This document shows positions 12,846-43,350 of a DNA stretch of 64,000 bases, one piece after another. Both the position numbers and the translations under genes were made by a program. Below the pieces are notes generated by a model, which had not been told where the DNA came from, did not search any database, and worked only from the letters and a program-made list of their open reading frames with translations. Source of the stretch: Methanobacteriota archaeon (GTDB lineage Archaea; Halobacteriota; Bog-38; Methanoflorentales; Methanoflorentaceae); the NCBI GenBank assembly GCA_963720465.1, contig OY970393.1, forward strand, positions 352,001 through 416,000, in the 5' to 3' direction. Every line of letters starts with the position of its first letter. Position 1 is the stretch's first letter.

Positions 12846-13961
12846 TCAGACTGCGAAGCGTACGCCACCCCAGTACTGCATATACACATCATAAACCGAA
12901 TCAGGAAGCGGGTGCTTGTAGCATCGCCAATCTACCCCTGAAGCACCATGCGTCAAAATATATGCCCTATTCGAATGCTCCCATTGAATGATATCACCGT
13001 GCTGCTCAGCAAATTTTCGCAGGTCACCCATTACGAAACGAGCATTGCATTGAGACAGCAGTATCTTGTGTATCTTGTGTTCCCGCAGCCACCTTTGAAA
13101 GGATAATTGCTCAAAAATAAACTTGTCATCATCTCGACCGTCGAGAAGCGGGCGGAAAGCGTCAACGACTTGGGGATGGAATGGGCAGTAATGCTGCATT
13201 CTGATTTTATCACACTCTGGCGGGATATCGAGTACAGGCGTATCCTGGCTTATCGCCTGATTAAATTGGCCTACCGTGAGTTGCGCTATCGTTGCTAGAG
13301 GCCTCTGTCCGGTGAACGCGCCGAATAGCACGATTGCTCGGTAGTTGATACGGTGATACTCGTCTATTTCATCTTTTTCAGCAGCTTGTTCGATAGCGAT
13401 GAGCACATTTTCGATATCTTGTTTGGTGACGATTCGAGCAGTGATACGCTTACGTTCTTTAAGCGCTTTCGGCATTTAGAGGAATAGTTTGAACGCTTCG
13501 TATCGTGTATCGACCCGCGCTTTTGCTAAATAACTGAAGAATGCTTTCGAGAAGTTGATGACTTTCCGCTTGGCGTAAATGTCGACGTATTTACGCAGCA
13601 CGTATTGGCGCAATACATCTACAGTCGTTTTGCTTATCTCTCCCTTTGTGCAGTCCCAAAGAATCTCCGCAGCCTTTCGTAGCCAGATTATTGTTTTTCT
13701 GCTTAGTCCGACTGCCCGCCTATCAGTATAACTTGTTAACTGGCTTTTGGAAAACGTTAGTATGAGCGTTTCCAGTGTGTCGCAATTGTTGTTCGGCGAA
13801 CAACGGCCGCTTGAATTGCAGTCTGCGCAAGAAGGCCTAGAATCAGCTAAAATGCCTAAATAAGCCCTGTTGAGGCTCCGACTCGGGCGCTTCATTTTTG
13901 TATTTAATATAGGGACGGGGCACTGCTTAGCAAAAATGCGAAAGATTAGTCCGATTGACAA
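12846..13961 (-). pseudogene. Tyrosine recombinase/integrase copy 1, single in-frame TAA
   Basis: ORFs 13476-13961 and 12846-13475 are in frame, separated only by TAA (…FL*MPK…); box I 'GAFTGQRP', 'DKIR', 'DLRKF', 'ILTHG', 'YKHPLP'. Confidence 0.85.
13863..13891 (+). mobile_element. Degenerate tRNA-Asp 3'-half att remnant (T-arm deleted)
   Basis: AGCCCTGTTGAGGCTCCGACTCGGGCGCT matches 35178-35220 apart from a deletion between the two CCGACTCGGG repeats and one loop substitution. Confidence 0.7.
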
Positions 13962-14011
13962 AATAAGGCAGTATTGTCAAAATAAGGCACGATAATACGT
14001 TTATACGAGTG
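13955..14011 (+). promoter_or_regulatory. TATA-like promoter with tandem TTG(A/T)CAAAATAAGGCA repeats
   Basis: Direct repeats followed by CGTTTATA upstream of CDS 14080; homologous to 8623-8680. Confidence 0.55.
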
Positions 14012-14079
14012 TGGCACTTTTTGTACAGTTTCCAAAAAAAAACATCGAATGTGCAACGACGAGCACCCGATGCGGATGA

Positions 14080-14757
14080 ATGATTGACATGCATTTGAAC
14101 TATAAAATGGTGAGTCTGGCAATTGCCGCGCTTGTAGTATTTTCGGTATTTTCCGGAGTTGCAGCTATTGCCACAACGGCGGCAGCAAAGAAAGGAACTG
14201 AGGTTGCGGTGACCGTAAGCAGTGACCCCGCTGGCGTGGTGTCAGGTCAAGTCGCTAACCACACGAAACTCAAGCTCCCTGCGGCAACAGTGAATAGCGT
14301 CACGTTCACGGCAACGGAAAGCGGTGTTTGGAGTGTGACCCGTCCATCAGGGGCATCGTCGATGTCACCGTCTCAGCCCGCGATGACAATTTACACGCAG
14401 GTCTCCGGCGTTTATACCGTTAGCTTGACTCCATCAGGCTCCACCAAGCCGATTTGGTCCGCGACAATAAAGGTCCCGTTTTCGGTGACCGTAAGCAGTG
14501 ACCCCGCTGGCGTGGTGTCAGGTCAAGTCGCTAACAACGCGCAAATCGACCTTCCTTCAGGAGCGGTGAATTCAGTCACGTTCACGGCAACGGAAAGCGG
14601 TGTTTGGAGTGTGACTAATCCATCAGGGGCATCGTCGATGTCACCGTCTCAGCCCGCGATGACAATTTACACGCAGGTCTCCGGCGTTTATACCGTTAGC
14701 TTGACTCCATCAGGCTCCACCAAGCCGATTTGGTCCGCGACAATAGCGGTGGTCTAA
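14080..14757 (+). CDS. Secreted Ser/Thr-rich protein with two near-identical 92-aa beta-rich domains
   Basis: Signal peptide; 276-bp internal tandem duplication (14207-14469 vs 14483-14745). Confidence 0.8.
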   Translation: MIDMHLNYKMVSLAIAALVVFSVFSGVAAIATTAAAKKGTEVAVTVSSDPAGVVSGQVANHTKLKLPAATVNSVTFTATESGVWSVTRPSGASSMSPSQPAMTIYTQVSGVYTVSLTPSGSTKPIWSATIKVPFSVTVSSDPAGVVSGQVANNAQIDLPSGAVNSVTFTATESGVWSVTNPSGASSMSPSQPAMTIYTQVSGVYTVSLTPSGSTKPIWSATIAVV

Positions 14758-14906
14758 AAACTCAAAGATGCTCAGCTCAGACAAGAGATACAGATATTTC
14801 AGGGTTCGTGAAAGGGTTTACCCCTTTTCTTCTTTCTTTGAAAATTAATCATGCGTGTAGCGGTCTGTGTTCAGCACTTGTGTGGCGACTCTAAAACTTG
14901 TGGAGT

Positions 14907-14975
14907 TCAACTCTTAAACGACACATCTCCCCAAGATCTTATATACACGTCTTAAACCTGCTCAGGCAGCGGATG
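14907..14975 (-). repeat. Integrase 3'-tail copy T1
   Basis: Translates HPLPEQV*DVYIRSWGDVSFKS*. Confidence 0.8.
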
Positions 14976-15035
14976 CCAGCAGGTACTCCATTCCCACCTG
15001 CCATTTTGTGAGTTGCAATAGGGTGCCTAGCCAAG

Positions 15036-15218
15036 CTACCTGAAAATGTGAACCCAGAGGTTGATCGCCATAGGTACCATCGTCACTACGATAACCAAGA
15101 TGACGAACAATGGCGTTATTTTTGCTTTTCCACTCCAGACAACATAAAACTCGAGAGCATCGGTGACTGCGACGATGATGGTAGCGATGATAAGAGCTCT
15201 CACAAAGAGGTCGAGCAT
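15036..15218 (-). CDS. Small two-TM membrane protein
   Basis: 60-aa hydrophobic ORF with RBS AAGGAG, sole gene between tails T1 and T2. Confidence 0.65.
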   Translation of the reverse strand: MLDLFVRALIIATIIVAVTDALEFYVVWSGKAKITPLFVILVIVVTMVPMAINLWVHIFR

Positions 15219-15273
15219 GGTTTTACTCCTTACGCTTCAGTCGATATTTGATTCAAAAACTGCTAGTGACAGT

Positions 15274-15342
15274 TTACTTGCCTAGCTGGGTATTTTGCCA
15301 ATACTTTATATAAACGTCATAAACGTGCTCAGGCAGCGGATG
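15274..15342 (-). repeat. Integrase 3'-tail copy T2
   Basis: Translates HPLPEHVYDVYIKYWQNTQLGK*. Confidence 0.85.
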
Positions 15343-15434
15343 TCGAGAATGCTCACCTCCGCGGCGTCAATCTTCCTTTTTTCGCTCATGCCGAGGGTCG
15401 CTAATAAATACTGAAGGCAGGATCAGCGAAACAG

Positions 15435-15857: not shown

Positions 15858-16015
15858 ATACGCACATCCTTCCAATACTTCATGTAGACATCGTACACTG
15901 AATCAGGTAGTGGGTGGCGATAATTGCTCCATTCGACGCCGAAACGCCGTGAGTTAGGATATAAGCGCAGTTTGACTCATTCCACCCGACGAAGTCGTCG
16001 CGTTGTTCGGCAACT
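15842..16015 (-). repeat. Integrase 3'-tail copy T3
   Basis: KVAEQRDDFVGWNESNCAYILTHGVS / (frameshift) GVEWSNYRHPLPDSVYDVYMKYWKDVRIQLHS*. Confidence 0.85.
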
Positions 16016-16207
16016 TTGAGCAAATTAGAGAGCTTTTTACCGTGGCGCTCAAATATGCCAAGTTTGATCTGTACGCCTTTCGAGGCGCAAATACCAGTCA
16101 TATGGTATGAGGGTGTACTATATGGCCAAATGTTGGTTAGTCTAAAAATAACGAACCTATTGGGAGTTTGAGAGTTACTGGGCTCCCGACCTGAGTGTTA
16201 CGCAACA

Positions 16208-17008
16208 CTAAACTCGCAGGTACACGACGTTCATCGCTCTATTTCTGTCGGAGAGATCCATCCATCTCGTGACTGACCTACCCCACGCAGGGTCTCGTGG
16301 AATGGTGTTGAACAGGGGAAACTGATTCAAAATTTTGATGCGATTATCCCATTTTGTTATCGTGCGTGCATCCTTGAGGGCCCATTTCGTGGCGGTCATC
16401 CCCATCTTCCGCATACCCCAGTTGCTCCTTAACTTGGCGAATCTTGACTGGATATTAAACACAATCTCCGCTCCCGGAAGACCATCTGCGAGCGATGAGA
16501 AGAACGATTTTATGTCAAACCCTTGAAAGAATATGAGCACTCCGGCCGCTATCATAAATACGCCGTTTTCAGTATCAATAATGTCGTCAAGCCAACTGGG
16601 ATCCAGCAACGATTTTGCGATGCACGTCGACCGGGCAGTTTCGGGGATCAGTCGCCGTCGAAGGTCGATGACCGCAGGAAGGTCAAGGTCGTACCAGTGG
16701 ATCGATCCGTTGTCGACCCGGTAATATGTGGTGTCTAGACCCGCCCCAAGATCAATGACCGACGCTTTGGGATGCTCAGCGATGAACGCGCGGGTCTTGT
16801 CGTCGACATGCTTCGCTATTGCCGCGAACATGAGATTTCCGAGTACGCCGAGAGTTTTGTCGAACCTTGCAAAATCGTAATTAAGCTGTTCAACGAGTTC
16901 AATAGCCTTCATATCGTTAAGGATGGAGGGGTTCTCTCGACTGAATTTTGCCCGCCCCCACAGAGGAACGAGTAACGTCTCCTCTACGCCACTCAGATCA
17001 AGTTTCAT
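16208..17008 (-). CDS. Class I SAM-dependent methyltransferase (LCM/TcmP-like)
   Basis: 'ETLLVPLWGRA', 'VIDLGAGLDT', 'WYDLDLPAVI', 'AAGVLIFF'. Confidence 0.9.
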   Translation of the reverse strand: MKLDLSGVEETLLVPLWGRAKFSRENPSILNDMKAIELVEQLNYDFARFDKTLGVLGNLMFAAIAKHVDDKTRAFIAEHPKASVIDLGAGLDTTYYRVDNGSIHWYDLDLPAVIDLRRRLIPETARSTCIAKSLLDPSWLDDIIDTENGVFMIAAGVLIFFQGFDIKSFFSSLADGLPGAEIVFNIQSRFAKLRSNWGMRKMGMTATKWALKDARTITKWDNRIKILNQFPLFNTIPRDPAWGRSVTRWMDLSDRNRAMNVVYLRV

Positions 17009-17119
17009 CGTGCGTACCTGGCGAAACGTCTTCCGATATACACCAAAATGGGTGGGTAAATAAAAACGTTGTGCATTGACCGAGCTGGGAGAGATCCAGA
17101 GGAAGCTTAACTAACGAGC

Positions 17120-17350
17120 TTAGATCGTTAAACGCACATCCGCCAGTACCTCATGTGCACATCATACGCTAAATCGGGCAGTCGGTGGCGATATTACTTC
17201 CACTCAACGCCTGAAACGCCGTGCGTCATTACGTAAGCGCGTTTCGACTCACCCCACGCTATAACGCCGCCCCGATACTCAGCGAACTTACACTGATCCA
17301 ACGTGCCAAAATGGCTTGAACACCGCACCAAGGGTATTTTCTGGCTCAGC
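17120..17350 (-). repeat. Integrase 3'-tail copy T4 (degenerate)
   Basis: KIPLVRCSSHFGTLDQCKFAEYRGGVIAWGESKRAYVMTHGVSGVEWK*YRHRLPDLAYDVHMRYW. Confidence 0.8.
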
Positions 17351-17738: not shown

Positions 17739-18614
17739 ATGGATGACGATGCAGAATTCATCACCCGGCTCATTGGCTTCGGACTCAGCGAGAAAGAGGT
17801 GCAAGTTTATCTGCACTTGCTAAAGCACGGCCCTAAGACGCCGTCTCCCATAGCTAAAACGCTCAAGACGTACCCCGTAGACATCCACCGCACGCTTATG
17901 AGTCTCATTGAAAAGGAGTGGGTGCGTGCCGCACACGATTCACCTACAGTTTACGCAGCGGTTGAGCTTTGTGCGGCCCTTGATTCTACCTTGAAGAAGC
18001 ACGAGAGCGAACTTCGCGAGATGGAGGCACGAAAGCTGGGGTTGCAGGAACTCGCAAAGCAACAACAGTTCTGCCCCTCCGATGACGTAGCGACGTTCAA
18101 GATCATCAAGAGTAACAAGGAACTCATCGCTGCTGTTATACCACTTTTGGACTCGATGAAGCAGGAATGGCTTGCAGCCGTACCTGGATTGGCGACGGTC
18201 ATTGCCTCATTGTTTGGCATCAACGATGCCGCCGCGGAGTTCATTCAGCGCGGAGGCAAAGTAAAAACGATAGTCGATATCTCGCATCCAATTATCGATA
18301 ACGTGCGGGAGCTGTTGCAGATTGGTGAAGAAGTGCGCCACATCGATGAACACGGCTTGATGTTCGTCGTGTTCGACCGAAGACATAGCATGACAGTGAT
18401 AAATATCGCCGAGAGCAGCTCACTGAACGCGCCGATGACAGCTCTTTGGACCGACGATCCTACCTATGCCGAATATCTCGCAGCTACGTTCGAAATGCTG
18501 TGGAAAAAGTCAGTTCCGGCTGAAGAACATATACAAAAGCTGCTGAAACAAGGCCCTCCGCCCGATACGGAAGAGACTGCTCTTGGCCATCTCGACTCTT
18601 TGGAACTGGAATGA
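17739..18614 (+). CDS. TrmB family transcriptional regulator
   Basis: 'FGLSEKEVQVYLHLLKHGP' wHTH, coiled coil, C-terminal effector domain. Confidence 0.85.
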   Translation: MDDDAEFITRLIGFGLSEKEVQVYLHLLKHGPKTPSPIAKTLKTYPVDIHRTLMSLIEKEWVRAAHDSPTVYAAVELCAALDSTLKKHESELREMEARKLGLQELAKQQQFCPSDDVATFKIIKSNKELIAAVIPLLDSMKQEWLAAVPGLATVIASLFGINDAAAEFIQRGGKVKTIVDISHPIIDNVRELLQIGEEVRHIDEHGLMFVVFDRRHSMTVINIAESSSLNAPMTALWTDDPTYAEYLAATFEMLWKKSVPAEEHIQKLLKQGPPPDTEETALGHLDSLELE

Positions 18615-18690: not shown

Positions 18691-18925
18691 CTAAGTCGTG
18701 AGAAATTTAGTATCTGCCCAATACTGCATATACAAGTCATATATGTGTTCGGGCAGGATGCTTGTAATGCTTCCAATCGACTCCGCTGACTCCATGCGTC
18801 ATTATATACGCTCGGTTTGACTGATCCCACCCTATTGCATCGCCGTATTGTTCACAAAACTTACGGAGATCACCGAGCACGAAGTGCCTCTTGAACCGTG
18901 ATATGGGGATCTTCCGTCGTTTGGC
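18691..18925 (-). repeat. Integrase 3'-tail copy T5
   Basis: RRKIPISRFKRHFVLGDLRKFCEQYGDAIGWDQSNRAYIMTHGVSGVDWKHYKHP… then frameshifted tail. Confidence 0.85.
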
Positions 18926-18972
18926 CCGCATCCCAAAAGCTATAGTGAAAAACAGCTTCATCGTCTCCTTTT

Positions 18973-19988
18973 TTGCGTCTGTTTGATGAACGGAGCTCGC
19001 CAGCTCCAGGAAAAAAGTGTAAACTCGAGTGTAAACTTTCATCCAAGTATAGCCACACTAGCATGTCGGATCTCGCGCTAACATTCACGCTTGAGGACTT
19101 ACAGGCATATCTCACGCAGCGAGCAGCAGGACTGGCACGCAAGACCGTTATATGGTTGGAAAAGGCGGCAGAACTGTTATGGAATGCAACGAAAGGCATC
19201 GTGAGCGTATCCAGGCTACAAAACTTGCGTAACTACGTACTTAAAAAATATCGCGATATCGACGCCAAACGCAAAGTCCCACCGTTTGCACGTGCATTTC
19301 TCCACTACATGTCAAAAATCAGCTTCGACCAGCGGTACGCCGCGTTTGACTTGTTCTTACAGCTCCCACGGTCGGTCAAGGAGCGCAAGCACGTCACAAG
19401 TCGCATTGTGACTAAAGACGACGTTAAAAAGTGCTCAAAGCGATAGAACAAGCACATAGGACTGGGCGAGTTGACAACTACCTTTATCTCAACTACAAAG
19501 CCTTGGTGCTATTTGCCGCGTTTACGGGACAACGACCCTTGGCAACAATCGCACGACTTACGGTGGGGCAGTTCCAGGAAGTCGTGAAACTGGAAAAGCC
19601 CATCGTCGAAGTCCTTCCACAGCAAGACAAAATACGAATGCAGCACTACTGTCCGCTCCATCCACAAGTTGTTGAGGCGATAGTGCCCCTGCTGGACGGT
19701 CGATGAGATGAAGAGCTAGTTTTTGAACAACTGTCCTTTCAGCAGTGGCTTAAGCACAACGAAGTTCGCGTTGCACAGTAATGCTTTATGGTTAACGGAG
19801 ATTTAAGGAAGTTCTGTGAACAAATGGGCGACATATTGCAGTGGGATCAGTCAAACCGAGCGTATATAATGACGCATGGAGTCAGCGGAGTCGATTGGAA
19901 GCATTACAAGCACCCATTGCCGGAAAATGTGTATGACGTTTATATGAAATATTGGACGCAGACTGAGTTCAGAACGCAGGTATTATGA
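18973..19988 (+). pseudogene. Tyrosine recombinase/integrase copy 2, frameshifted
   Basis: Three consecutive ORFs (18973-19446, 19431-19706, 19788-19988) colinear with copy 1; AFTGQRP, DKIR, DLRKF, THG, YKHPLP. Confidence 0.85.
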
Positions 19989-19999
19989 CGTGCGTGGAT

Positions 20000-20755
20000 T
20001 TATTTCCACTTTGTGAGTATTTCTTCCCTTCGGAAGGTGGCCCTGCTCACGTAAAACAAAATCGCGTCAAGAGCGAGAATAATCGCAGAAATGATCAGCA
20101 AGTTAGCAGGAGTGAGTGATACGAAAGCTATCTCAGTCGCAAGATATATCGCCGCCAAGGGGAGCACGATCAGCGCGCCGAACTGCTGGGCCGCGCGTAC
20201 GTCACTGACTCGTGCAGAGATGATGACGTTGAACTCAGTGCTTAAGATGCTGATGAGTGGCACGGTTATCAAGAGGATTACCGCCACGGTCCAATTCGGG
20301 AAATAGACGTAGCCGAGTTTGGTACTCGTCACTGCGTCCATAAGCACCATAAAAATCACCGCACCGGCATAGACCGCGCTAACGGATGGCAGAAATGCCG
20401 CGATAACTTTTCCCAGCAGGATCTCACCGTCAGTCGTAGGCGTTGCTAACAGGGGTTCGAGGGTTTTCTCAAGCTTCTCGCCGACGATGCTGTAAGCACC
20501 AATACTTATGGGGAGGAAACCTGCCAAGATGACAAAGAAAAAGGAGAAGGCGTTGAACACGTCATTAAGCCCGCTTATGATAGCTGGCAATTGTGCAGGA
20601 GGAATGGGGGCGCTTCCAATGCCAAGCCAAATGAGAGCGGGCAGTCCGATCGATAAGAACAGCGGCGTAACGACCAACGAGTAGATGACGTATCGTTTCG
20701 TCCTAAACGTGGAGAAGTCCTTCCGCGCGATCACCCACGACTTCCACAGCTTCAT
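20000..20755 (-). CDS. ABC-2 type transporter permease
   Basis: 'YSIVGEKLEKTLEPLLATP...ILLGK', several TM helices. Confidence 0.9.
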   Translation of the reverse strand: MKLWKSWVIARKDFSTFRTKRYVIYSLVVTPLFLSIGLPALIWLGIGSAPIPPAQLPAIISGLNDVFNAFSFFFVILAGFLPISIGAYSIVGEKLEKTLEPLLATPTTDGEILLGKVIAAFLPSVSAVYAGAVIFMVLMDAVTSTKLGYVYFPNWTVAVILLITVPLISILSTEFNVIISARVSDVRAAQQFGALIVLPLAAIYLATEIAFVSLTPANLLIISAIILALDAILFYVSRATFRREEILTKWK

Positions 20756-21672
20756 TGTTCATCCCTCACGAGTTTCAGGTAGACCTCCTCGAGCGTTGCG
20801 TGCTTCTCAGTAATAAACTGGATGTGGCCGCCCGCTGCGACAATGGCTTCCATGATGCCGGGATTCTCCTTCTCAGGATCGCGCACATCGATCACCAATC
20901 TGTTGCCATCAGCCACGACGTAGCGCAACCCCAGCCGCTCTACCGCGGCGGTGACCGCAGGAGTAACCTGCTGAAGCTGAACTTCCGTCTTCCTTCCCTC
21001 GAGCGACCCCATCAGTTGTTCCGGTGTCCCTTCGGCCACGAGTTTTGTGTTCAGTATCCCGATTCTATCACAGATACGCTGTGCCTCATCGAGATTGTGC
21101 GTGTTGAGAAAGATCGTCCGCTTCTCGTGTTTGAGTTCGAGGATGAAGTCGCGCACAGTTTTTTGAAACTCCGGGTCCAAGTTTGCTGTCGGCTCGTCCA
21201 AAAAGAGAACCTGAGGCTCGTGGACCAGGGCACGGACGATGGCAAGTTTTTGTTTCATGCCTTTGGAAAACGTTCTAACCGCTCGATCCCTCACATTCCA
21301 AAGCCCCAACATCTTGAGGAAATGCTCGATCCTATCCTCCCGCTGTGCTACCGTGCACTCGTAAAGCCGTCCATAGAAGTCGAGGTTCCTGTAAGCGCTC
21401 AGGTCTTCATAGAGACCAACGTTGTCAGGCACTAACCCGATGATCTTCCTGATCTTCAGGGCATCGGCATCGTTCCCAATCTCGTAATTGCCTATTCGTG
21501 CTTCTCCGCTGGTCTTTGATATCAGACACGCTAGCACCCGAACAGTAGTGGTTTTCCCCGCGCCGTTCGGTCCAAGAAAGCCGAAGACTTCTCCCTCGTC
21601 TACACGAAGGGTCAGGTCCTCAACTGCCGTCACGTCACCAAACGTTTTCGTAAGGTTATTCGTTTCAATCAA
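20752..21672 (-). CDS. ABC transporter ATP-binding protein
   Basis: GPNGAGKTT, FSKGMKQK, LFLDEPT; 4-bp overlap with permease. Confidence 0.95.
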   Translation of the reverse strand: MIETNNLTKTFGDVTAVEDLTLRVDEGEVFGFLGPNGAGKTTTVRVLACLISKTSGEARIGNYEIGNDADALKIRKIIGLVPDNVGLYEDLSAYRNLDFYGRLYECTVAQREDRIEHFLKMLGLWNVRDRAVRTFSKGMKQKLAIVRALVHEPQVLFLDEPTANLDPEFQKTVRDFILELKHEKRTIFLNTHNLDEAQRICDRIGILNTKLVAEGTPEQLMGSLEGRKTEVQLQQVTPAVTAAVERLGLRYVVADGNRLVIDVRDPEKENPGIMEAIVAAGGHIQFITEKHATLEEVYLKLVRDEQ

Positions 21673-21754
21673 ATGCCAACACCTTGCCGGCCCGAAGATT
21701 CACAGCAATCAACTGGTGAATTAATCTGATCTCTTAAAGCTTGTAGTCATCGAC

Positions 21755-21835
21755 ATTGATTGGAAGCACTATAAGCAGCATCCTTTGCCCGAAAACGTTT
21801 ACAGCACGTACATGCGATACTGGGGCGATGTCTAA
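21755..21835 (+). repeat. Integrase 3'-tail copy T6 (plus strand)
   Basis: Translates IDWKHYKQHPLPENVYSTYMRYWGDV*. Confidence 0.85.
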
Positions 21836-22252
21836 CTTGCTGGTTGATGCGTCATCGTGCCGAACGTATTTAAGGAGAAGGCGCAGGTGCTGAGTGAGCA
21901 ATCGCAGCCTATTCAGAAGTTAAGAAATAACTCGGTCAGCTCGGTTTTCACTTCGTAAGTCCCTTTTTAGTGCTTGCTGTGCGTCGGGTAGGTTTATAAG
22001 CCGCGTGAGGCAGGGATTGTGTGGGAAAGCGTGACAGCGCGTTTGTGCCACAGTTAACGGTGGCTTTCGCTGGAACGGGCAACGACTCGGAACTATTAAG
22101 CCGAGCGCTTGGAGAGGTCAAGGCAAAATTCTATGAGAAGTCGTACAGTCTACACGTTCTACGGCGCTCTCGCAAGCAAGTTTATTGAGGCTCTGCATTG
22201 AGAGTGCTACGTTCTAATGGCAGTACTAATGTCAGTTATTGCTTAGCCATCA

Positions 22253-23095: not shown

Positions 23096-23341
23096 CGCTC
23101 GGTACGTTCAACAAATGAGATATAAAGGTTAGTTACACGTGCGTGTTATGAAGTCAAGCAAAGAGCAGTGCACCGAGCGCTATGCTCCGTTTGACTTTGC
23201 CCTGCACGCACGATGGCTGGCTACCCGACGTTGTTCGTCAGCAGTTGCGACGAATTATCAAAAGGACACAAGTGCGATTGTTTTAGAGCCGCGAATACGG
23301 CAGCGCATAGTTTCCCGTATCTTTTGCCGCACCCAGCAAAT

Positions 23342-30149: not shown

Positions 30150-30268
30150 CTAACTAAGGTCGTCGAAGGTGACATGTTTCCAGTACTGCATATACAGATC
30201 ATAAACGTGGTCAGGCAGTGGATGCCGATAATTGCTTCACTCAACACCGCGAACGCTGTGTGCGCATA
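30150..30268 (-). repeat. Integrase 3'-tail copy T9
   Basis: Translates …GVE*SNYRHPLPDHVYDLYMQYWKHVTFDDLS*. Confidence 0.85.
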
Positions 30269-30407
30269 ACGGCCTTGACTCGGACTAGAACTGTAACACA
30301 AGTTAGTTACAGCAATGCTTATTTACGCCGAGCGTATAGTGTCTGGTTTCAAAAAACGGCGGTTGAGTAATCAATGCGGAGACCAACACACGCATGGAAG
30401 TGATAAG

Positions 30408-30788: not shown

Positions 30789-30927
30789 TCACAGACTAGA
30801 GCGCACGTCTTTCCAATATTTCATTTACACGTCATACACGTTCTCTGGCAGCGGATGCCGATAATGTGCTCATGAAACGTCCCTAGCGCCACGCGTAAGA
30901 ACGTAACGCAATTTGACTCACTCCACG
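30789..30927 (-). repeat. Integrase 3'-tail copy T10
   Basis: Translates …YVLTRGARDVS*AHYRHPLPENVYDV*MKYWKDVRSSL*. Confidence 0.85.
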
Positions 30928-33016: not shown

Positions 33017-33130
33017 TTATGCCGTCCTGAATTCGATCTGGCCCCAATATCTCATATAGATGTCATAGACAGGCTCCGGCAACGGATGTTTGCAGTGCTT
33101 GCTTTCAATTCTGCGGACTCAGTGCGTCAT
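33017..33130 (-). repeat. Integrase 3'-tail copy T11
   Basis: Translates MTH*VRRIESKHCKHPLPEPVYDIYMRYWGQIEFRTA*. Confidence 0.85.
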
Positions 33131-33346: not shown

Positions 33347-34144
33347 TTAAGGAGAGGCTCCGTTTCTGCATACCCCTTTTTTCGCCCTTAAATAACTCTT
33401 TTGAATCACGCTTGTATTGCCTCTTAACAACACGGGGTAAAGGCTGAAGTGCTTCGCACATCTGTCAACGTTTGCGTCAAAGTCTGACTCATAGGAAAGA
33501 CCGGTATCCACTTTGGCGATCTTCTTAAATCGCGCATGCTTCATTAACGTGAAGTCCTCGCTTAGATCTTGCCACTGAGCAGCAACCATGGGCGTCAAAA
33601 ACAGCATGATGTTGTTGTTGGTGAGCATGTTCGCATATGCCTGATTCCCACCAAGCGCAAGGGCGATGCAGTCATCAACCGTTGCCCCGTCGTCGTCGGC
33701 GAGGAAGAAAAGTTGACATGTACTGCCGTTGAAATCGTGCTCGAGAGTCCTAAGGGCATCACAAATCCCATAGAGCACAAAGATCCCGTCTGAAAAGTTT
33801 GACATGCGCTCGATCTGGTGGTATACCTCTTGCTTAAGGAGCTTGCTATCGACGTGAAGCCTCAACGGAAAAACGTGGACAACGACAGCAAGATCGTCTC
33901 CGCTTCGACGGCGAAGCAGCTGCTGAAGAACGCCACGTCTTTTTGTCAAATGTCCGCTAGAATGCGCCCCTTGTCTATGCTTCTTAACGAGATTAAAGGC
34001 CCCTTCAAAATCCTTAATAAGAAATGGGCGGTTCTGTGATCGTAACTTTCGTGCTAGCTCTTGCTGTTCTGTGCTGTCAACGATAACAAGCTGCTTGATG
34101 TCGTCGTCATCGGCAAGAACAGAGGTGAGCTCATCTTCGAGCAT
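33347..34144 (-). CDS. DUF1638-like protein
   Basis: '(IISCR)MLEDEL', 'LRLHVD', 'LYGIC', 'VDDCIALALGG', 'KVDTGL'; true start probably slightly upstream. Confidence 0.75.
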   Translation of the reverse strand: MLEDELTSVLADDDDIKQLVIVDSTEQQELARKLRSQNRPFLIKDFEGAFNLVKKHRQGAHSSGHLTKRRGVLQQLLRRRSGDDLAVVVHVFPLRLHVDSKLLKQEVYHQIERMSNFSDGIFVLYGICDALRTLEHDFNGSTCQLFFLADDDGATVDDCIALALGGNQAYANMLTNNNIMLFLTPMVAAQWQDLSEDFTLMKHARFKKIAKVDTGLSYESDFDANVDRCAKHFSLYPVLLRGNTSVIQKSYLRAKKGVCRNGASP

Positions 34145-34180
34145 TCTGCATGAAATGATACTTAAGATGGGAATGTGGGG

Positions 34181-35174
34181 TCACCTTGTGAACACTACTT
34201 TTTTCCAATACTAGATATAAACATTATAAACCTGCTCAGACAGCGGATGCCGGTAATTGCTCCACTCGATCCACACGCCATGCGTAAGAATTTAGGCGCG
34301 ATAAGATTCATTCCACCGCACTATGTCGCCGTGCTGCTCAGCGAACTTTCGTAGATCTGACGTGACAAAGTGGCTATTGCATCGTGCTAAGGGAATCCGC
34401 CGCTTCTGCAGCCACTTGCGGAAGCTTTCCAAGATAAACATCGATTCGGCGCCTTCTCTGCCATCGGACAGACCCTCCATTACATCCGCAGCTTGCGGGT
34501 GTACAGGCGCATAATGTTCCATCTTGATTTTGTCTTGTGCGGGTTCGACGTGGACAACCGGTTTCTCAAGCTCCAGCTTCCCTAAACTGTTCAACCCTCA
34601 ACTGTTTTATCGCACTGTAAGGGCGTTGACTCGTAAAAGCCCCGTACAACACAACCCCTGCAAACTGCCGAGCATCTTCTTCGTCGATCGAACCGTGTAA
34701 CATCTGCTGCTTGATAACAGCCAGCGTGTGCTCAATACCGTCTTTTGTGATCACTTGCGCCGTCATTTTCTTCTTTATCTTACGCACCCTTGGTTTCTCA
34801 AGAAACATGTCGAAAGCTAGGTAGCGAGGATCGAGTGTCAGCTTCGCCTGATACTTCAAGAAGCCCTTAGTAAAATTCAGCACCTTGTTTTGAGCGTAGA
34901 AGTCATCGTACTTCTTGAACAGAACCGTACGAAGCTGTTTCAAGCTACCTTTGCTGATCGAACCCTTGGTATGTGACCAGAACACCTCTGCAGCTTTCTT
35001 GATTCAGGCGCTGGACTTGTGCGTTAATCCAGCCGTTCGCCGCGTGGGATAGCTATCAAGCTCCTTCTTCGTATACTTGAACTTCAAGGTCGCCAGCGTT
35101 TCACTCTTTGGAGGCTTTAATTCTGCAAGATGAATATTAGTTTCTTGAGCTTCAAACAGTAAACGAGCTTCCAT
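34181..35174 (-). pseudogene. Tyrosine recombinase/integrase copy 3, several stops and frameshifts
   Basis: MEARLLF…RRTAGLTHKSSA*IKKAAEVFW, GAFTSQRP, DKIK, DLRKFAEQHGD, degenerate YRHPL…YWKK tail. Confidence 0.85.
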
Positions 35175-35372: not shown

Positions 35373-36209
35373 TTGATGACCAGTGACGACGAGTTTACCA
35401 GCCGTTTGATTGGTTTTGGTCTCAGTGAAAAGGAGGCACAGCTGTATTTGCACTTGCTCAAGTACGGCCCAAAGTCTCCGTCCCCCATCGCCAAATCGCT
35501 GAAGACGTATCGGGAGGACGTGCATCGTACACTCACCAGTCTTATCGAGAAAGGCATGGTGCGCCCCTCGCTCGACGCGCCCACCATCTACGCTGCGGTT
35601 GATCTTGATGCAGCGCTCGAAGCCGCGCTGAAAAAGCACGAGAGCGAACTTCGCGAGATGGAGGCACGAAAGCGGGAGCTGCAGCAGCTCTCGCAACAAC
35701 AACAATTCAGGCCCTCCGATGAAGTCGCCACGTTCAAGATCCTCAAGACTATGAAAGAACTCCTCGCTGTCAGCGCGCCAGTAATTGACGAGATGCAAAA
35801 GGAATGGCTGATGGTGACTCCTGCTTATTTGAGTGTCATAGCCTCCCGCTTTGGAGTCAACGACGCTGCGTCTGCGTTTATCAAGCGCGGCGGAACGGTG
35901 CGAGTCATCATCGACATTTCGCATCAATATATTGAACCGGTGCGAGAGATGATAGCCATCGGTGAAGAAGTGCGCCACGTAGATCAACATGGGATCACGT
36001 TCACCGTATACGATAGAAGAATCTCTATATCCACGATCAACAGAGAAGTCGAGAGCTTCTCTCTCGAAGCGCCCATCTGTGCACTCTGGACCGACGACCC
36101 CGCCTACGCTGCGTACCTCGCCTCCACATTTGAGATGCTATGGGCACAGGCAGTTCCGGCAGAAGAGCGAATACGCGAGCTTTTGGAACAGGCGCCCCCG
36201 CAGGCATAA
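35373..36209 (+). CDS. TrmB family transcriptional regulator
   Basis: Close paralog of 17739-18614. Confidence 0.87.
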   Translation: MMTSDDEFTSRLIGFGLSEKEAQLYLHLLKYGPKSPSPIAKSLKTYREDVHRTLTSLIEKGMVRPSLDAPTIYAAVDLDAALEAALKKHESELREMEARKRELQQLSQQQQFRPSDEVATFKILKTMKELLAVSAPVIDEMQKEWLMVTPAYLSVIASRFGVNDAASAFIKRGGTVRVIIDISHQYIEPVREMIAIGEEVRHVDQHGITFTVYDRRISISTINREVESFSLEAPICALWTDDPAYAAYLASTFEMLWAQAVPAEERIRELLEQAPPQA

Positions 36210-38640: not shown

Positions 38641-39033
38641 AGAGGCGACTCCTTGCTATCCTCTGTTTTTCATTTTTTGCCTCTGCCTCTCGCATCATGA
38701 TTCACTCCTTTTGTTTAACACAGAGGGCTTGGGCCCATTCAGATGCTTACAGCAGAGCCAAAGCAAAAAAAAAAGAAGCCAGGTCATCCCTGGCTTAAAT
38801 CGAATTCGATTTTAACTTTTGCGGTTGCCCTGATTAATGACTGATCCTATCAGGTCGCTCGTAAGCGATGATCGTTTGCGAATCACTGATATCAGGGCAC
38901 TCGCTTTTTTTTCTTTTCTCCAATGCTCCCAGTTTTTGTAGCAGCGCCTACAGCTGAGATCAACTGTAGGCACTCGCCGTCGCTTTTACAGCAGGGCTGT
39001 ATCACGACCTGCTGTCATCGCTCGTAGACTTGC

Positions 39034-39597
39034 TTAGCTCTTCGCGATTGCTGTTGCGTTGCCCCAGGCCACGGCAGGGCTAGTGTTGATGTCTTTGATG
39101 ACGATGTTGCTGTTGACAGCAGTGTTGCTCTGGCCGGTTTGGATCGGGGCGCCTACCGTACCGTCATCGACTGGCAGCCGACGGACGGTGTTGTTGTCGC
39201 CAGTAACTGATTGGGTGTTTGTCTGGATGATTGTCTGCGTGGATGCAGCTGCTTGGCTGTTTCCACTCGCGCTCGCGGCCGCGCCACCCTTGGCAGCGAC
39301 TGCGGCTGCAGGCGTAACGACTGTCTTAACGGGCATTGGCTTCCAGATGGGCATCGCCCAGACTGCTTTGACCGCACAGCACTGAGTGACGACGCAGCAC
39401 GCGACTGTTGGACAGCAGCACGTCGTGGGGCAGCAGCTGCTGCAGCACGTTGAGGTCACGCAGCTCGTGCACTGAGCGCAGGTCGTGGCAGCGCAGGTGC
39501 TTGTCGTGGCCTTGGCGGCGCACTGGGCTGAAACTGTGCCCGTCGCTGCAAGTGCCACAAAAGCGAGCACTAATAGAGAAACGATAACTTTCTTCAT
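39034..39597 (-). CDS. Secreted Cys-rich / Gln-Asn-Thr-rich protein, copy A
   Basis: Signal peptide, CC/CCC cluster, RBS GAGGAG; paralog at 43651. Confidence 0.85.
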   Translation of the reverse strand: MKKVIVSLLVLAFVALAATGTVSAQCAAKATTSTCAATTCAQCTSCVTSTCCSSCCPTTCCCPTVACCVVTQCCAVKAVWAMPIWKPMPVKTVVTPAAAVAAKGGAAASASGNSQAAASTQTIIQTNTQSVTGDNNTVRRLPVDDGTVGAPIQTGQSNTAVNSNIVIKDINTSPAVAWGNATAIAKS

Positions 39598-39930
39598 GAT
39601 TCATCTCCTCTTAGGCTAACCGAGTTTCGGCTAACGTTTTTTCATTAAAGCAAATTATTATAAGGCTTTTTCGATTCTCACGTCATTTACTCGGTCTTGC
39701 GGGCGTAGCGGTGCTGAGTGAGGACTAAAAACACCGATCAACTCGGTTAGCCTCGCGTTTTGATGCTGCTTACGCGACTACTCACAAGATGCCGGGGTCC
39801 GGCTGACTTGCCTGTGAGAAAATCACTTCAATCATCTAATCAGGACTACAGCGTACGGTTTAAAACAATGACGACACATTGCCACAATGTGAGACAACAT
39901 GTCAATGGAGAATATTCTTATGGCTGAGAC

Positions 39931-40875: not shown

Positions 40876-41649
40876 ATGAGAAAACACCTCATTTTAGTGC
40901 TCGTTGTGATAGCGGGTGCAACGGTTATGATCGCAGGATGCACATCATCGTCAAGCCCGAGTCCGAGCCCGAGCGCAAGTGCAACGACAACGGCCGTTAG
41001 TAGCGCAACGGTCGCTGCTGACGCAGCAGCCGCGCTTGGTGGTAACGCAAGTAATGCAACCAACCTCACCGCCGTGCAAGGGCAGAATTTTATGATCCAA
41101 CTGCCATCGAATTCATCGATCGGCAACGGCAACCACTGGGCGCTGTCCCTTTATGACGCCTCGTCCGTAACGTTGGTCAATCAAACGTACGTGGGCGGCA
41201 GCGTATCAGCGCCCGGACCGCGCGCCGACGTATTCACCTTCCAGGGAACTAAGACCGGAACCAGTGTCATTACGTTCAACTGCGTAAGCCCTACCAACCA
41301 AATTGAAAACACCGTGAAGTACACGATTAATTGTACAACGCTCAATGTGCCCACGGTGAACGCAGTATATATCTCACACGGCCAGGACTTTGCGATCCGG
41401 CTGCCATCGAATCCATCGACCGGCTACCACTGGGAGCTGTCCCTCTATGACAACTCGACCCTTAAGTTGGTCAATCAGACCTTTGCGAGCAACGTCAGCA
41501 CATCGAGCACAGTTGTCGGGGCGGGCGGCACAGACGTGTTCACCTTCCAAGCAACTCAGGCGGGAACCGGTGGCATCGCGTTCAGCGAGATGAGCCCAGC
41601 GAACCAACCAACAAGCGCAGTCGTTTATTCGGTGGTCATCGCGTCGTAA
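40876..41649 (+). CDS. Lipoprotein with two chagasin/I42 protease-inhibitor domains
   Basis: Lipobox IAGC; 'LPSNPSTGYHW' and 'VVGAGGTDVFTF' I42 motifs, duplicated. Confidence 0.85.
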   Translation: MRKHLILVLVVIAGATVMIAGCTSSSSPSPSPSASATTTAVSSATVAADAAAALGGNASNATNLTAVQGQNFMIQLPSNSSIGNGNHWALSLYDASSVTLVNQTYVGGSVSAPGPRADVFTFQGTKTGTSVITFNCVSPTNQIENTVKYTINCTTLNVPTVNAVYISHGQDFAIRLPSNPSTGYHWELSLYDNSTLKLVNQTFASNVSTSSTVVGAGGTDVFTFQATQAGTGGIAFSEMSPANQPTSAVVYSVVIAS

Positions 41650-41659
41650 GTCCCCCCTT

Positions 41660-41790
41660 TGCTTGACGCCTCTTCGTACTCCGTGTAGACGTCGTAATGA
41701 CGTAGCCCCGCTGCTTAGCAAACTTGCGAAGATCTGAACGAACAAAATAGCAACAGCACCGTGATCGATATCTTCTATTTCTGTGTCCAC
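41660..41790 (-). repeat. Integrase 3'-tail copy T13 (internally deleted)
   Basis: …YFVRSDLRKFAKQRGYVI joined directly to YDVYTEY. Confidence 0.7.
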
Positions 41791-42008
41791 ATTCGGAAGC
41801 TTTCAAGAGTGACAATACGTTCTTTGTCTTCACTGCCGTCACAAAGAGTTTCTAGAACCCAGCGAATCGCTTCCAAATGTTTCTACTCGCTATGGAGGCC
41901 TGAGCACCTTTCATCCTGCGACTCTTAGAAACTTTCTCGGCGGCAATCTGGTTTACCCTGAAAAGGGTATCAACGTTGAGCCGCCGAGACCAGCAACGGC
42001 AAAACGGT

Positions 42009-42914
42009 TCATAGAAAAAGCTCGCGCAGATTGATTTTGAATTCCCCCATTTTTCCGCCGTAGTTACCTGCGGAAATTCTGGCCACACCATCGACGTTAA
42101 AGGTAGCTTCAATTCCTCTTTTCATCGCTTCTCTAACTGCGTCAAGAGAGGTTCCGTTAATCACTATTTCGGGAATATATCGAACGCCCTCTGGAACCTT
42201 GGAGACCAACCTGTGCTTAAGCGAAGGACAAAATGGATCATTTGTGGTTGGACCTATCAATGGAAAATGGGTTTCAGGCTTTGAACCTGCGGCACACACA
42301 TCGAAAGGGGTCACCACACCCGTTACGCGGTGGATGGCACGCAGGGCCTTCTCTCCGGCTTTTCTTAGAGCCTCTTTTGTTTCGCACATGACCCAGAAAT
42401 TCGCGCCCATCACACCGTGAGCGTACCCTAGACGTTTTTCTATGATGAAATCTGGGACCATAAGTGGCACAACAACAACGCTTCTGCCAAAGCGTTTTTC
42501 CACCCATTCATATCCGTCACCACAATGTCCAATCCGCTCCATCATGTCCATCTCACCCTCTGCGTCCGCTAGCGCATCGAAGACCGCGGTGAAGGGTTTA
42601 ACAAGTATGTCTTGGCGAATCCTGTAAGAAAGTTCAGCCTCAAACTTCTTTAATGAAGCGGTCAACGCTTTCTTCTCGTCTAAACCCGCCCAGAACTGCA
42701 GGACAGCGCCCTTGCGCTTATCTGGAGTCGAATTTTCGTCAAGCAACTTCTCAACGCCGCCCTCTACTCTGCCGATCACAACTGAAGGCGTTGCCGTTGA
42801 GTCTTCAGCTGCACTGCGCAAAGTTGCGTCGTCGTCGGCTGTAATTATGACTCGGCAAAAAATACCTGCAAATGCCTCGGCATAAGTGTCTTCAATTTCA
42901 ACATTGAACGCCAT
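42009..42914 (-). CDS. ftr: Formylmethanofuran:tetrahydromethanopterin formyltransferase (Ftr family)
   Basis: 'IEDTYAEAF', 'TPDKRKG', 'GDGYE', 'GVMGANF', 'EIVING', '[11 protein letters not shown]'. Confidence 0.88.
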
Positions 42915-43224
42915 TTCTCATCCGAGCCTCCCAACAGATTCTCCTCTGACCTTTTGTCTTAATTCGCTGCTTTCTTTCACGGGTGATTCCTTATTCTCAG
43001 CGGTGACTATTTGAAGCTTGGGTAACTCGTGAGGATGCAACTGGAAGATTCGAGAGCAGAGCGTGACTGATCGCGCTAAGCGCAAGAGACACGCGACCTT
43101 GACGAACGCCGATGCAAGGTCTATTGATTTGCACGTATGCTGGAAACATCAGCGATTATTGCTGTACTCAAGCAGGTTTCGAGGCCGTGGACGTTTGGTT
43201 AATGAGCTGCAACTGTTCATAGAG

Positions 43225-43350
43225 CACAACGCACATCTTTCCCGTATCTCACATAGCATCTTATAGGTGTTCGGGCAATGTGTGGCGATAATCGCTCCAC
43301 TTTACACCTCTTACCGTGTAACTGAGAACGTACGCTTGACTCGGTTTGCG
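43225..43350 (-). repeat. Integrase 3'-tail copy T14 (degenerate)
   Basis: …AYVLSYTVRGVKWSDYRHTLPEH… followed by a GKDVR-like end. Confidence 0.65.

Follow-up and report, generated by a model that had tools for sequence, protein, structure and literature searches.

Stacks of accessory genes delimited by 3′ ends of a tyrosine recombinase gene in a peat-soil archaeon

Integrase-less elements flanked by att sites accrete in CIME/ICE systems of streptococci and in IMEX stacks at dif, where non-autonomous units carrying only an attachment site pile up beside an autonomous element and can be moved in trans. For archaeal integrases, the portions of Badel et al. 2020 (PMC7253208) considered here propose a model in which tandem insertion reconstitutes the whole gene, and report no tandem integration in that paper's data sets. 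Archaeal integrons are treated by Ghaly et al. 2022 (bioRxiv 10.1101/2022.02.06.479319), considered here in part. In a peat-soil archaeon, we describe stacks of unrelated accessory genes parted by integrase 3′ ends (hereafter tails), which look like a gene-collecting platform whose putative docking site would be the integrase gene's own end. The window is the whole 64,000-nt stretch of DNA analysed, and the array discussed occupies its 12.8–43.4 kb part.

The integrase is a previously unclassified archaeal tyrosine recombinase. The protein matches no Pfam entry with E up to 10, hence not PF00589, and nothing in NCBIfam or among PDB sequences. Its assignment rests on the predicted fold: the AF2 model (pLDDT 82.6) best matches the PDB structures of Tn1549 Int, Cre, lambda Int, Flp and XerH (probability 0.94–1.00, E from 2.5e-3), every one of the closest named Atlas clusters is Phage_integrase (score 0.97–0.98), and matches to PHROGs integrase families have E-values of 7.6e-6 and 3e-5. 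Residues R157, R250, H273 and Y283 (P0001 numbering) are invariant across 24 sequences. Searches of IMG/VR, PLSDB and INPHARED returned no integrase relative and so no link to phages or plasmids. Within the family to which the window belongs, the integrase is matched in 22 of 23 genomes, with 9–89 first-look candidates in each; outside it, matching genomes gave 2–11 candidates and 18/20 had a single match. The expansion of the integrase is lineage-specific.

The preliminary description had placed 14 tails and three near full-length integrase copies in the array. Searching 12.8–43.4 kb of the window with an nhmmer DNA profile of integrase codons 150–304 gave 16 matches, comprising three long copies, 12 tails and one internal fragment, which confirms 12 of the 14 claimed tails; all 12 reach codon 302–303 (E-values 4.8e-8 to 3.9e-57). 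The copy given at 41660 is real, but it is an internal fragment (41696–41858, minus strand, codons ~205–259; nhmmer) without the tail end, and the tail given at 33244 was not recovered by HMM, by nhmmer or by eye in three frames. The three long copies were recovered by nhmmer and protein HMM, and all three are broken. Copy 1 (12846–13961, minus strand; nhmmer 12856–13325, protein HMM 12852–13769, tblastn) is interrupted by an in-frame TAA at 13476–13478 and lies furthest downstream (3′) in the minus-strand array. Copy 2 (18979–19973, plus strand; nhmmer 19512–19958, protein HMM 19069–19973) has one frameshift and two in-frame stops. Copy 3 (34192–35108, minus strand; nhmmer 34192–34644, protein HMM 34214–35003) has a frameshift and stops, and five co-oriented tails lie downstream of it.

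As described earlier, all tails but one are on the minus strand; the exception, at 21.7 kb (21746–21837, codons ~274–303; nhmmer), shares the plus strand with copy 2 at 19.0–20.0 kb. The first minus-strand tails lie at 14917–15014 (codons ~270–303; nhmmer E 1.9e-10, tblastn) and 15286–15352 (codons ~280–302; nhmmer), the latter followed by a module for a 60-aa “membrane peptide” (15024–15343). Three longer ones, each found by protein HMM and nhmmer, are at 15861–16035 (nhmmer 15861–16025; codons ~244–304), 17130–17347 (codons ~230–303, frameshifted) and 18705–18979 (nhmmer 18705–18970; codons ~211–303), the last adjoining the inverted copy 2 head to head. The remaining tails, all found by nhmmer, are at 26360–26464 (codons ~268–303), 27388–27447, 30166–30262 (codons ~271–303), 30801–30926 (codons ~260–302; also tblastn), 33030–33130 (codons ~270–303) and 43229–43339 (codons ~265–302), which is the upstream-most. 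The tail at 27388–27447 is minimal, starting at codon 283/284 with unrelated DNA upstream. A hairpin-containing non-coding motif (27468–27512) precedes it.

The cargo identities proposed earlier were borne out by Pfam. They comprise an LCM-type methyltransferase (16208–17008, minus strand), three TrmB-family regulators (17739–18614, plus; 22253–23095, minus; 35373–36209, plus), a TM1586-type nitroreductase (27653–28435, plus), two ORFs of a split aldo-keto reductase/Fer4 gene (28513–29037 and 29045–29656, plus), a DUF3303 protein (30315–30719, plus), a hybrid histidine kinase with receiver, PAS, HisKA and HATPase domains (31176–32999, plus), a DUF1638 protein (33347–34144, minus), a chagasin/I42 inhibitor-domain protein (40876–41649, plus) and Ftr, the formylmethanofuran-H4MPT formyltransferase (42009–42914, minus). 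An ABC-2 transporter gene pair (20000–21672, minus) lies within a tail-bounded module (19827–21777, plus) that consists of tail codons ~260 to stop, the ABC genes and a partial tail of codons 273–283. Cargo genes thus occur on both strands, and some blocks are multi-gene.

Such an array might result from ordinary decay, if a few hotspots had taken up whole integrase-bearing elements in tandem and the integrase bodies had later been deleted, leaving tails as inert scars that are over-represented because the 3′ region is the best conserved and most detectable; we consider this unlikely. Many tails do carry stops or frameshifts (in-frame stops in at least 12 solo tails, counted by eye from the tail listing), detection of 22-codon fragments is much more efficient at the C-terminal end than in the rest of the gene, and relatives contain tandem full and near-full integrase copies (e.g. 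L003 and L004), all of which fit decay. However, the smallest tail-bounded blocks, 369–635 bp by the spacing of nhmmer matches, are far too small for autonomous elements, and under random deletion the upstream two thirds of the gene ought to be represented by more pieces. Genome-wide, we counted 60 integrase-related elements, of which 9 are full-span, 45 C-terminal-only, 3 restricted to N-terminal or middle parts and 3 others. The excess of tails (45 vs 3) persists among fragments of at least 35 codons (21 vs 3, hand count over the whole genome), a length at which fragments are found at 0.81–1.00 across all 28 start positions tested, so that decay does not readily account for it.

The elements are also clustered beyond chance: 52 of the 60 lie no more than 10 kb from another, whereas 2000 random placements gave 24.0 on average and never more than 38. 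They are co-oriented as well; of 43 pairs of neighbours spaced by up to 10 kb across the genome, 38 are on the same strand and five on opposite strands. At 78 loci in other genomes, 61 C-terminal-only fragments are co-oriented downstream of the central integrase, 18 are co-oriented upstream and 11 lie on the other strand; total flank lengths are nearly equal, and these counts are not independent because loci overlap on the same contigs and the genomes are related. The idea of a gene-capture platform behind an integrase is partly supported, tails lying mainly downstream of full integrases, but by definition this is not an integron.

Several module junctions fall exactly at codon 283|284, codon 283 being one after the predicted catalytic tyrosine and codon 284 starting HPLP, and at least six independent junctions lie within 2 nt of this boundary. 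The membrane-peptide module starts there, beside a solo tail in G000 and beside an intact integrase in G011; further cases are G_1902864/L068_12932 and L011_2978/L040_6060, and the upstream-derived matches L012/L013 and L011/L014 end at −2 and −1 nt of codon 284, respectively. That one and the same tail-plus-cargo unit is joined at codon 283/284 to different partners, and that several solo tails start at this same nucleotide position after unrelated DNA, both argue against decay. Eleven of 28 high-identity matches running at least 100 nt into cargo start between −16 and +9 nt from codon 284, a cluster partly confounded by the drop in conservation in codons 280–283, which would halt BLAST extension. 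Other junctions are dispersed over codons ~238–300. Among 35 upstream-derived matches, the end point is −2 to −1 nt in only three, −56 to −60 in five and −86 to −88 in another five, and the ABC module has its right edge of high identity between codons 283 and 284 but its left edge at codon ~260; many exchanges thus occur without one fixed point. Tail 5′ ends range over codons 159–288, with modest modes at 276, 280–281 and 283, a heterogeneity that decay would also produce. Tails delimit modules as the preliminary description had it, but given this scatter of ends and breakpoints a single precise recombination site is not established.

Because these breakpoints are spread over the most conserved stretch of the gene, a second alternative is that the integrase is uninvolved and that host homologous recombination uses the tails, as the best-conserved DNA that otherwise divergent elements have in common, to insert, delete, invert and swap modules. 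Integrase bodies that are 92–98% identical indeed bear different tails from codon 255, 264 or 283 onward, and the window holds one inverted segment whose flanking tails point in opposite directions. Nor is a DNA-level core site evident at the junction: across 47 full integrases, synonymous codon identity is 0.41–0.44 in codons 256–300 and 0.29–0.43 elsewhere, so at or slightly above the top of the rest-of-gene range, and the 15 nt past the junction vary to much the same degree whether copies are long, middle or short (on average 2.9, 2.7 and 2.5 mismatches). Homologous exchange among integrase sequences, however, cannot join unrelated DNA directly onto codon 284, and such junctions recur across loci and genomes (L068_12932, L040_6060/L053_16323, G000 379447, L020_11848, L073_4528). 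Moreover, most window tails measure 60–110 nt with ~70–85% identity in BLAST matches among them, a poor substrate for homologous recombination, and the downstream bias of 61 vs 18 is what one would expect if insertion took place at the 3′ end of the integrase gene. On balance, we regard this alternative as improbable. Homologous recombination between conserved tails, or whole-element decay, could nevertheless explain part of the pattern.

Comparison with related genomes revealed turnover of the cargo, window modules matching scattered sites in five same-genus genomes. At the orthologous ftr-side site, the array of G011, of the same genus (flank identity 84.6–86.6%), shares with the window only ftr and a 76%-identical integrase, the other cargo being different. 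Contig 1 of G009 is collinear with the window at both ends and in two cargo blocks and differs elsewhere; the tail at 43229–43339 has a counterpart there at 732–843. Ftr is kept at the orthologous array edge in both (85% in G011, 87% in G009). The ABC transporter module has been recently exchanged, since its 1951 bp are 97.1% identical to G011 1767636–1769586, where it occupies a different array, against about 86% in the flanks. The membrane-peptide module is 92% identical in G011, there fused at codon 284 to an intact integrase, and the tail-plus-methyltransferase unit (16204–17262) has an 85% identical copy in an array at genome positions 335253–336308. The tail-plus-DUF1638 unit (33362–34302) is 92.6% identical to G009 contig 1 4630–5573, where the integrase body is absent. 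At both the ABC and the DUF1638 modules, one genome thus has an integrase body and the other a solo tail; deletion of the body could equally explain this difference, as decay would have it. The preliminary description had named in advance three patterns that would contradict it, namely N-terminal and middle fragments as common as tails, tails randomly scattered and cargo fixed in relatives; we looked for all three and found tails in excess, clustered and co-oriented, with differing content at the orthologous site.

We propose, with about even confidence for and against, that the arrays are accretion stacks arising from recombination within the last ~60 codons of this archaeal tyrosine recombinase gene. 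A circular DNA carrying a partial integrase 3′ end, usually without an integrase of its own, would recombine with a tail, either that of a resident integrase gene or one that the array already contains. The resident gene would be completed by the incoming tail, and the old tail would be displaced downstream with the newcomer's cargo now in front of it, repeated rounds yielding integrase, cargo, tail, cargo, tail and so on in a single orientation, much as displaced 3′ pieces of a tRNA gene build up beside a tRNA-gene island hotspot. The preferred crossover would lie at or next to codon 283|284, with exchanges elsewhere in the conserved tail too. Integrase-less modules would then be cassette-like and may be mobilised in trans by the small number of intact integrases at other genomic sites, such as the copy at genome positions 2297507–2298418. 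The tail would serve as the attachment site, such circles would exist, and the integrase rather than host homologous recombination would presumably catalyse the exchange.

Among known systems, integrons share with this locus co-oriented arrays of small, unrelated, integrase-less modules, a repeated recombinase-related boundary between modules, content varying among relatives, and some arrays without an intact integrase nearby; in integrons the latter are called CALINs. A true integron, with IntI, attI and attC-bounded cassettes, is highly improbable here, and membership is refuted on its defining features. The integrase, which lacks PF00589, is not IntI; modules are bounded by coding fragments of the integrase and not by a structured attC, 0/10 tails beating shuffles at z ≤ −2 in single-stranded DNA folding and an Rfam search of the window finding no family; and the geometry differs, arrays lying downstream of the integrase in its own orientation, with cargo on both strands and several genes in some blocks. 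The proposed piling of non-autonomous units movable in trans resembles CIME/ICE and IMEX accretion, in which the recombinase family and host domain are different and the attachment site lies outside the recombinase gene. As far as the part of PMC4383910 considered here goes, tandem tRNA/tmRNA-gene islands (Islander-type) are similar in that the 3′ end of the target gene is restored by the incoming element, whose far end is marked by the 3′ fragment it displaced, and repeated insertion gives co-oriented 3′ fragments and no 5′ fragments; unlike those islands, the target here is the integrase gene itself, and the units are mostly far smaller and without their own integrase. Type I “suicidal” archaeal integrases (SSV, pTN3 and pT26-2 families) likewise belong to archaeal elements and have a recombination point inside the integrase reading frame, hybrid integrases with swapped C-terminal segments, relaxed or short-homology site specificity and no evident directionality factor. 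The present integrase differs from them in having no Phage_integr_3 or other Pfam match, in involving no tRNA gene and in its hosts, which are peat/bog archaea and not hyperthermophiles; stacks of many units also set it apart from the data sets of PMC7253208, in the portions considered. Its junction lies beyond the predicted catalytic tyrosine, at the very 3′ end of the gene, and its target is apparently another integrase tail, so that the gene would be restored rather than destroyed.

An integrase-like open reading frame (ORF) containing one in-frame TAA (13476-13478) occupies positions 12846-13961 of the minus strand. When the read-through translation was compared by tblastn with the single-contig genome of 2.31 Mb, in which the window spans 352001-416000, dozens of matches fell in the last ~20-110 residues of the protein and hardly any in the rest. 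We scanned the genome in six frames using a protein HMM built from 24 homologues (alignment A1), and derived a DNA profile from codons 150-304 of 47 full-length integrase genes. The DNA profile detects 16 copies in the window: three long copies, all of which are broken, 12 tails (leftover 3′ fragments of the integrase gene) that reach codon 302-303, and an internal fragment (41696-41858). The DNA profile confirms 12 of the 14 tails listed in the preliminary description; the one placed at 33244 is absent, and the one at 41660 is not a tail end. The cargo names proposed from the first reading agree with the Pfam results.

Other repeated or broken sequences were observed in the window. A ~197-bp repeat (10654-10850 and 23204-23309) is found at least 15 times in this genome (74-86% identity) and also in others of the same genus. 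An ORF with a fasciclin domain (10937-11365) lies in a block (10901-11475) that has 97% identical copies at genome positions 744232-744806 and 1701078-1701653, and 96% identical copies in the relatives G011 and G002. A 225-aa ORF (14080-14757) with only a sub-threshold Pfam match bears an internal tandem duplication (14204-14469 and 14480-14745, 92.9% identity), and region 25642-25941 contains internal tandem repeats in overlapping 180-190-aa ORFs on both strands, neither with a Pfam match. A ~1-kb block is present twice (38743-39703 and 43361-44328, 86% identity), each time with a ~190-aa ORF lacking a Pfam match; a third copy lies between two tails at genome positions 1550210-1551260 and a fourth at 2263247-2264096. 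The aldo-keto reductase/ferredoxin gene (28513-29656) consists of two adjacent ORFs that divide the reductase profile between them, and is probably a pseudogene inside a cargo block.

The integrase matches no family in Pfam or NCBIfam at E values up to 10, PF00589 included. A single-sequence search of PDB sequences gave a best match of only E 0.04 or worse, to an unrelated protein, and a profile of 24 sequences gave none. The sole matches to curated profiles are weak ones to two PHROGs integrase families (E values of 7.6e-6 and 3e-5). In an Atlas feature search, the nearest named clusters are all Phage_integrase, and the 733 hits in the protein's own sequence cluster are mostly unnamed or annotated "integrase" by JGI. 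An AlphaFold2 model built on the alignment (mean pLDDT of 82.6) was compared with the PDB using Foldseek: Tn1549 Int, Cre, lambda Int and Flp fill the top 26 ranks (probability 0.94-1.00, E values of 2.5e-3 to 4.2e-2), and XerH is also among the best structural matches. The model has a two-domain fold with a C-terminal catalytic domain like that of Cre and lambda Int; global TM scores are low (0.28-0.38), as would be expected of two domains modelled in a different relative position. Five residues, R157, K189, R250, H273 and Y283 in the numbering of the reference integrase P0001, are invariant among the 24 homologues and are the predicted catalytic residues, placed by position and motif (TGQR, DLRK, THG, Y-K-HPLP); that the tyrosine of W-x-x-Y-K-HPLP is catalytic is predicted from its position alone. 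Given the fold matches, PHROGs, the Atlas neighbours and the invariant residues, we accept the protein as a tyrosine recombinase of a family outside the curated libraries. Current profile libraries miss the recombinase family defined here.

Relatives of the integrase were found in metagenome-assembled genomes (MAGs), several of them fragmented, whose public record titles read Bog-38 or "Halobacteriota/Methanomicrobia archaeon" and point to bog, fen and peat samples; single copies occur in records of Methanoculleus, Archaeoglobus and Methanoregulaceae. Among 301 genomes drawn from the phylum, 43 match the integrase. Within the family to which the window belongs, 22 of 23 genomes match, each with 9-89 first-look candidates. 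Matching genomes elsewhere number 20, of which 18 give one match; the candidates range from 2 to 11 in all 20. No relative was found in IMG/VR (27 pattern matches, none confirmed), PLSDB or INPHARED, and a prophage or plasmid origin was rejected on these searches.

After merging of collinear HMM pieces, the genome contains 60 integrase elements: nine full-length, 45 C-terminal only, three N-terminal or middle only, and three pieces of codons 227-278. As conservation in the gene is highest at the C terminus, detection was tested on fragments cut from the 47 full genes. Fragments of 35 codons were recovered at rates of 0.81-1.00 from all 28 start positions, and those of 22 codons reliably only from codon 241 on. 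Among fragments of at least 35 codons, a hand count across the genome gives 21 C-terminal against three N-terminal or middle ones, so that N-terminal and middle pieces are rarer than tails, contrary to what ordinary decay of repeated insertions would predict. Nor are the tails scattered at random: 52 of the 60 elements have a neighbour within 10 kb (mean of 24.0 and maximum of 38 in 2000 random placements), and 38 of 43 neighbour pairs share the same strand. In 78 integrase loci of other genomes, where total flank lengths are nearly equal, C-terminal fragments are co-oriented and downstream of the integrase in 61 cases, co-oriented and upstream in 18, and on the other strand in 11, with seven N-terminal fragments; these counts are descriptive rather than independent, because of overlaps between some loci and kinship between the genomes. 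Tandem whole elements that lost their integrase bodies by deletion are a live explanation for part or all of this pattern.

Cargo order in relatives is not fixed either, so that none of the three observations named in the preliminary description as refuting its interpretation was made. The window's right flank (49185-54016) is 86.6% identical to the complete genome of the same-genus relative G011, region 46166-47871 is 84.6% identical, and the region of ftr, the gene at the array edge, 85.1% (41696-43032). G011 has an array at the same ftr-side position, with tails at 1715172-1727340, and all that it has in common with the window beyond ftr is a 76%-identical integrase. The two ends of the window array, as well as its DUF1638 and nitroreductase blocks, are collinear with contig 1 of G009, another relative, which is otherwise different; at the position of the window's third long integrase copy, it has only a tail from codon 265. 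Variation of array content between related genomes, a feature of integrons, is thus seen in both orthologous arrays, which share few blocks with the window. Cargo blocks of the window match scattered places in five same-genus genomes. Conspicuous among them is the module, or tail-bounded cargo block, at 19827-21777. It consists of a tail from about codon 260 to the stop, the pair of ABC transporter genes and part of a second tail (codons 273-283). Over 1951 nt it is 97.1% identical to G011 positions 1767636-1769586, in a different array; its right edge falls exactly between codons 283 and 284, and its left edge is the start of a G011 solo tail, i.e. a tail without an integrase body. Because this identity compares with about 86% in the flanks, it points to a recent exchange of a tail-bounded unit between lineages.

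We analyzed the localization of such borders. Of the profile hits, 282 extend to the 3′ end: about 100 of them begin at the model edge (codons 150-152) and the others anywhere from codon 159 to 288, with modest modes at 276, 280-281 and 283. Segments of 800 nt anchored on the tails, taken from this genome and from all loci, were then compared at ≥88% identity; breakpoints are BLAST end points except where alignments were inspected. Peaks of match starts at codon 259-261 and of ends at 295-299 reflect the limits of the conserved block, not recombination, and only matches extending into cargo were retained. Of these, 28 continue for 100 nt or more into cargo past the stop, and 11 of the 28 start between −16 and +9 nt relative to the first base of codon 284. 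Alignments reveal identity starting exactly at the CAT of codon 284, with unrelated DNA upstream, in several independent pairs: between position 1902864 of the window's genome and locus L068, between position 367342 and L039, and between L011 and L040, all L numbers being loci around integrases of other genomes. The module of the 60-aa "membrane peptide" (15024-15343), 92% identical between the window and G011, is joined at codon 284 to a decayed solo tail in the former and to an intact integrase in the latter. Among 35 upstream-derived matches, the end lies at −2 to −1 nt in three, at −56 to −60 in five and at −86 to −88 in another five, and integrase bodies that are 92-98% identical bear different tails beyond these end points. 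A confounder is the conservation dip in codons 280-283, where BLAST matches tend to stop for that reason alone; it does not affect the junctions onto unrelated DNA. At least six junctions fall within 2 nt of the boundary between codons 283 and 284, the other breakpoints are scattered, and free elements with an intact attP were not encountered. Neither the heterogeneous 5′ ends of tails nor the match ends show a single sharp breakpoint. Because junctions cluster at this boundary yet others scatter, exchange appears to occur within the conserved 3′ stretch at a preferred rather than a fixed point. Host homologous recombination between tails could also explain part or all of the pattern, and is a live alternative to exchange by the integrase.

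Synonymous codon identity in the 47 full genes is 0.41-0.44 in codons 256-300 versus 0.29-0.43 elsewhere, and the 15 nt after the junction have on average 2.9, 2.7 and 2.5 mismatches to the consensus in long, middle and short copies, respectively. A DNA-level core is therefore not evident, and neither measure lends support to a DNA site concealed in the codons of the tail and shared across the family. Third positions are somewhat more uniform in short tails, which may be closer kin as DNA.

Two further arrangements were observed next to tails and integrases. A ~60-nt non-coding motif with a 6-bp hairpin (GGAGCC, 7 nt, GGCTCC) lies directly 5′ of short tails starting at about codon 277-284, at window positions 27468-27512 (minus strand), at genome positions 993382-993435 and in loci L011, L016, L056, L057, L058, L068, L070 and L084. 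Searching with nhmmer gave 29 hits, 15 of them adjacent to a tail, of which 12 are the training set; the half of the motif with the hairpin also occurs alone, and as no compensatory changes were seen among the hits, we make no structural claim. A subtype of the integrase with a tail reading W.HYRNPLPEN is found at genome positions 1558492-1559568 (minus strand) and 2104314-2105364 (plus strand) and in L057, L058 and L078. In these five cases, a partial tail of the other subtype (SNKNYILTHGVSGVDWRFYKHPLPEH), with its start at about codon 243-267, comes after it at a distance of about 40-110 bp and may represent a fixed attachment site adjacent to the integrase. No solo tails of this subtype were seen in the window's genome.

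We propose that a circle with a partial tail would integrate in Campbell fashion, its target being the tail of an array member or of a resident integrase gene. The incoming 3′ part would complete the integrase gene, and the old 3′ part would be displaced downstream behind the new cargo; repeated insertion would give an integrase and, behind it, cargo-tail units that all point the same way. In each solo tail, the 5′ part would belong to the unit upstream, so that 5′ extents would be heritable but varied. This model would cover the excess of 3′ fragments, their co-orientation and downstream bias, the chimeric tails and the tail swaps among integrases. The few intact copies would have to serve the units that lack an integrase; integrases at genome positions 2297507, 1558666 and 2104314 have no internal stop. 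We infer catalysis by the integrase, the existence of circles and an origin of the first partial tails in rare illegitimate events. In its full form, which we consider possible but on balance unlikely, the reading is that Bog-38-type archaea have evolved, separately from integrons, a gene-capture platform whose dock is the last ~21 codons of a recombinase gene. The enzyme would cut one codon after the codon of its predicted catalytic tyrosine, tail-only cassettes without an integrase would be inserted, excised and traded in trans between arrays and species, and every insertion would rebuild the integrase gene, so that the platform never inactivates itself. If the proposed mechanism holds, it would explain the shuffling of regulators, transporters and redox enzymes between these genomes. 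Short-read assemblies are probably broken by the arrays, to which the 70-310 contigs of several same-genus genomes may be related.

How does this organization compare with known systems? A classical integron is rejected: there is no IntI-type integrase, there is no Rfam match in the window (Rfam may have no attC model), and 10 tails folded as single-stranded DNA gave z scores of −1.61 to +1.39, none ≤ −2, and so lack the structure of attC sites, which are imperfect palindromes that fold as single strands. The geometry is also wrong, since intI is divergent from an array at attI on its 5′ side, whereas here tails lie mainly downstream and co-oriented with the integrase (61/18/11). Type I suicidal archaeal integrases, with a site inside their gene and known hybrid genes, are among the closest known systems. 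Those of SSV, pTN3 and pT26-2 belong to Phage_integr_3 (PF16795), for which there is no Pfam match here; an Atlas cluster carrying this domain appears only at rank 27 of the feature search. They leave int(N) and int(C) at a tRNA gene, whereas the window has no tRNA gene and isolated N-terminal pieces amount to 3 of 60. A tRNA target was likewise rejected, as only two of 10 loci checked have a tRNA gene, about 5.9 kb downstream of the integrase in L044 and 94 bp away in L045. In the latter locus (Methanoculleus sediminis, 9837-9907), tRNA-Val is divergent and upstream of the start of a single-copy integrase relative, with no tails nearby and no informative flanking direct repeats. Membership in type I suicidal integrases and in integrons therefore fails on the defining features tested. 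Badel et al. 2020 report no tandem integrations in their data sets (PMC7253208), and no description of stacks of integrase tails was found in this paper or in the review PMC8371274; the family may be among the unnamed ones of that review, such as fam30-08. Our literature search found no report of such stacks, and no paper pairing "Bog-38" with "integrase". The logic that fits is that of islands in tRNA genes, which restore their target gene and leave co-oriented, displaced 3′ fragments, and no 5′ ones, downstream of an intact copy; here the integrase gene is its own target. If the mechanism holds, it would extend the idea of an attachment site within the integrase gene from a self-destroying to a self-restoring integrase, and would represent a second, independently evolved route to cassette arrays, in an uncultured archaeal lineage of peat soils.
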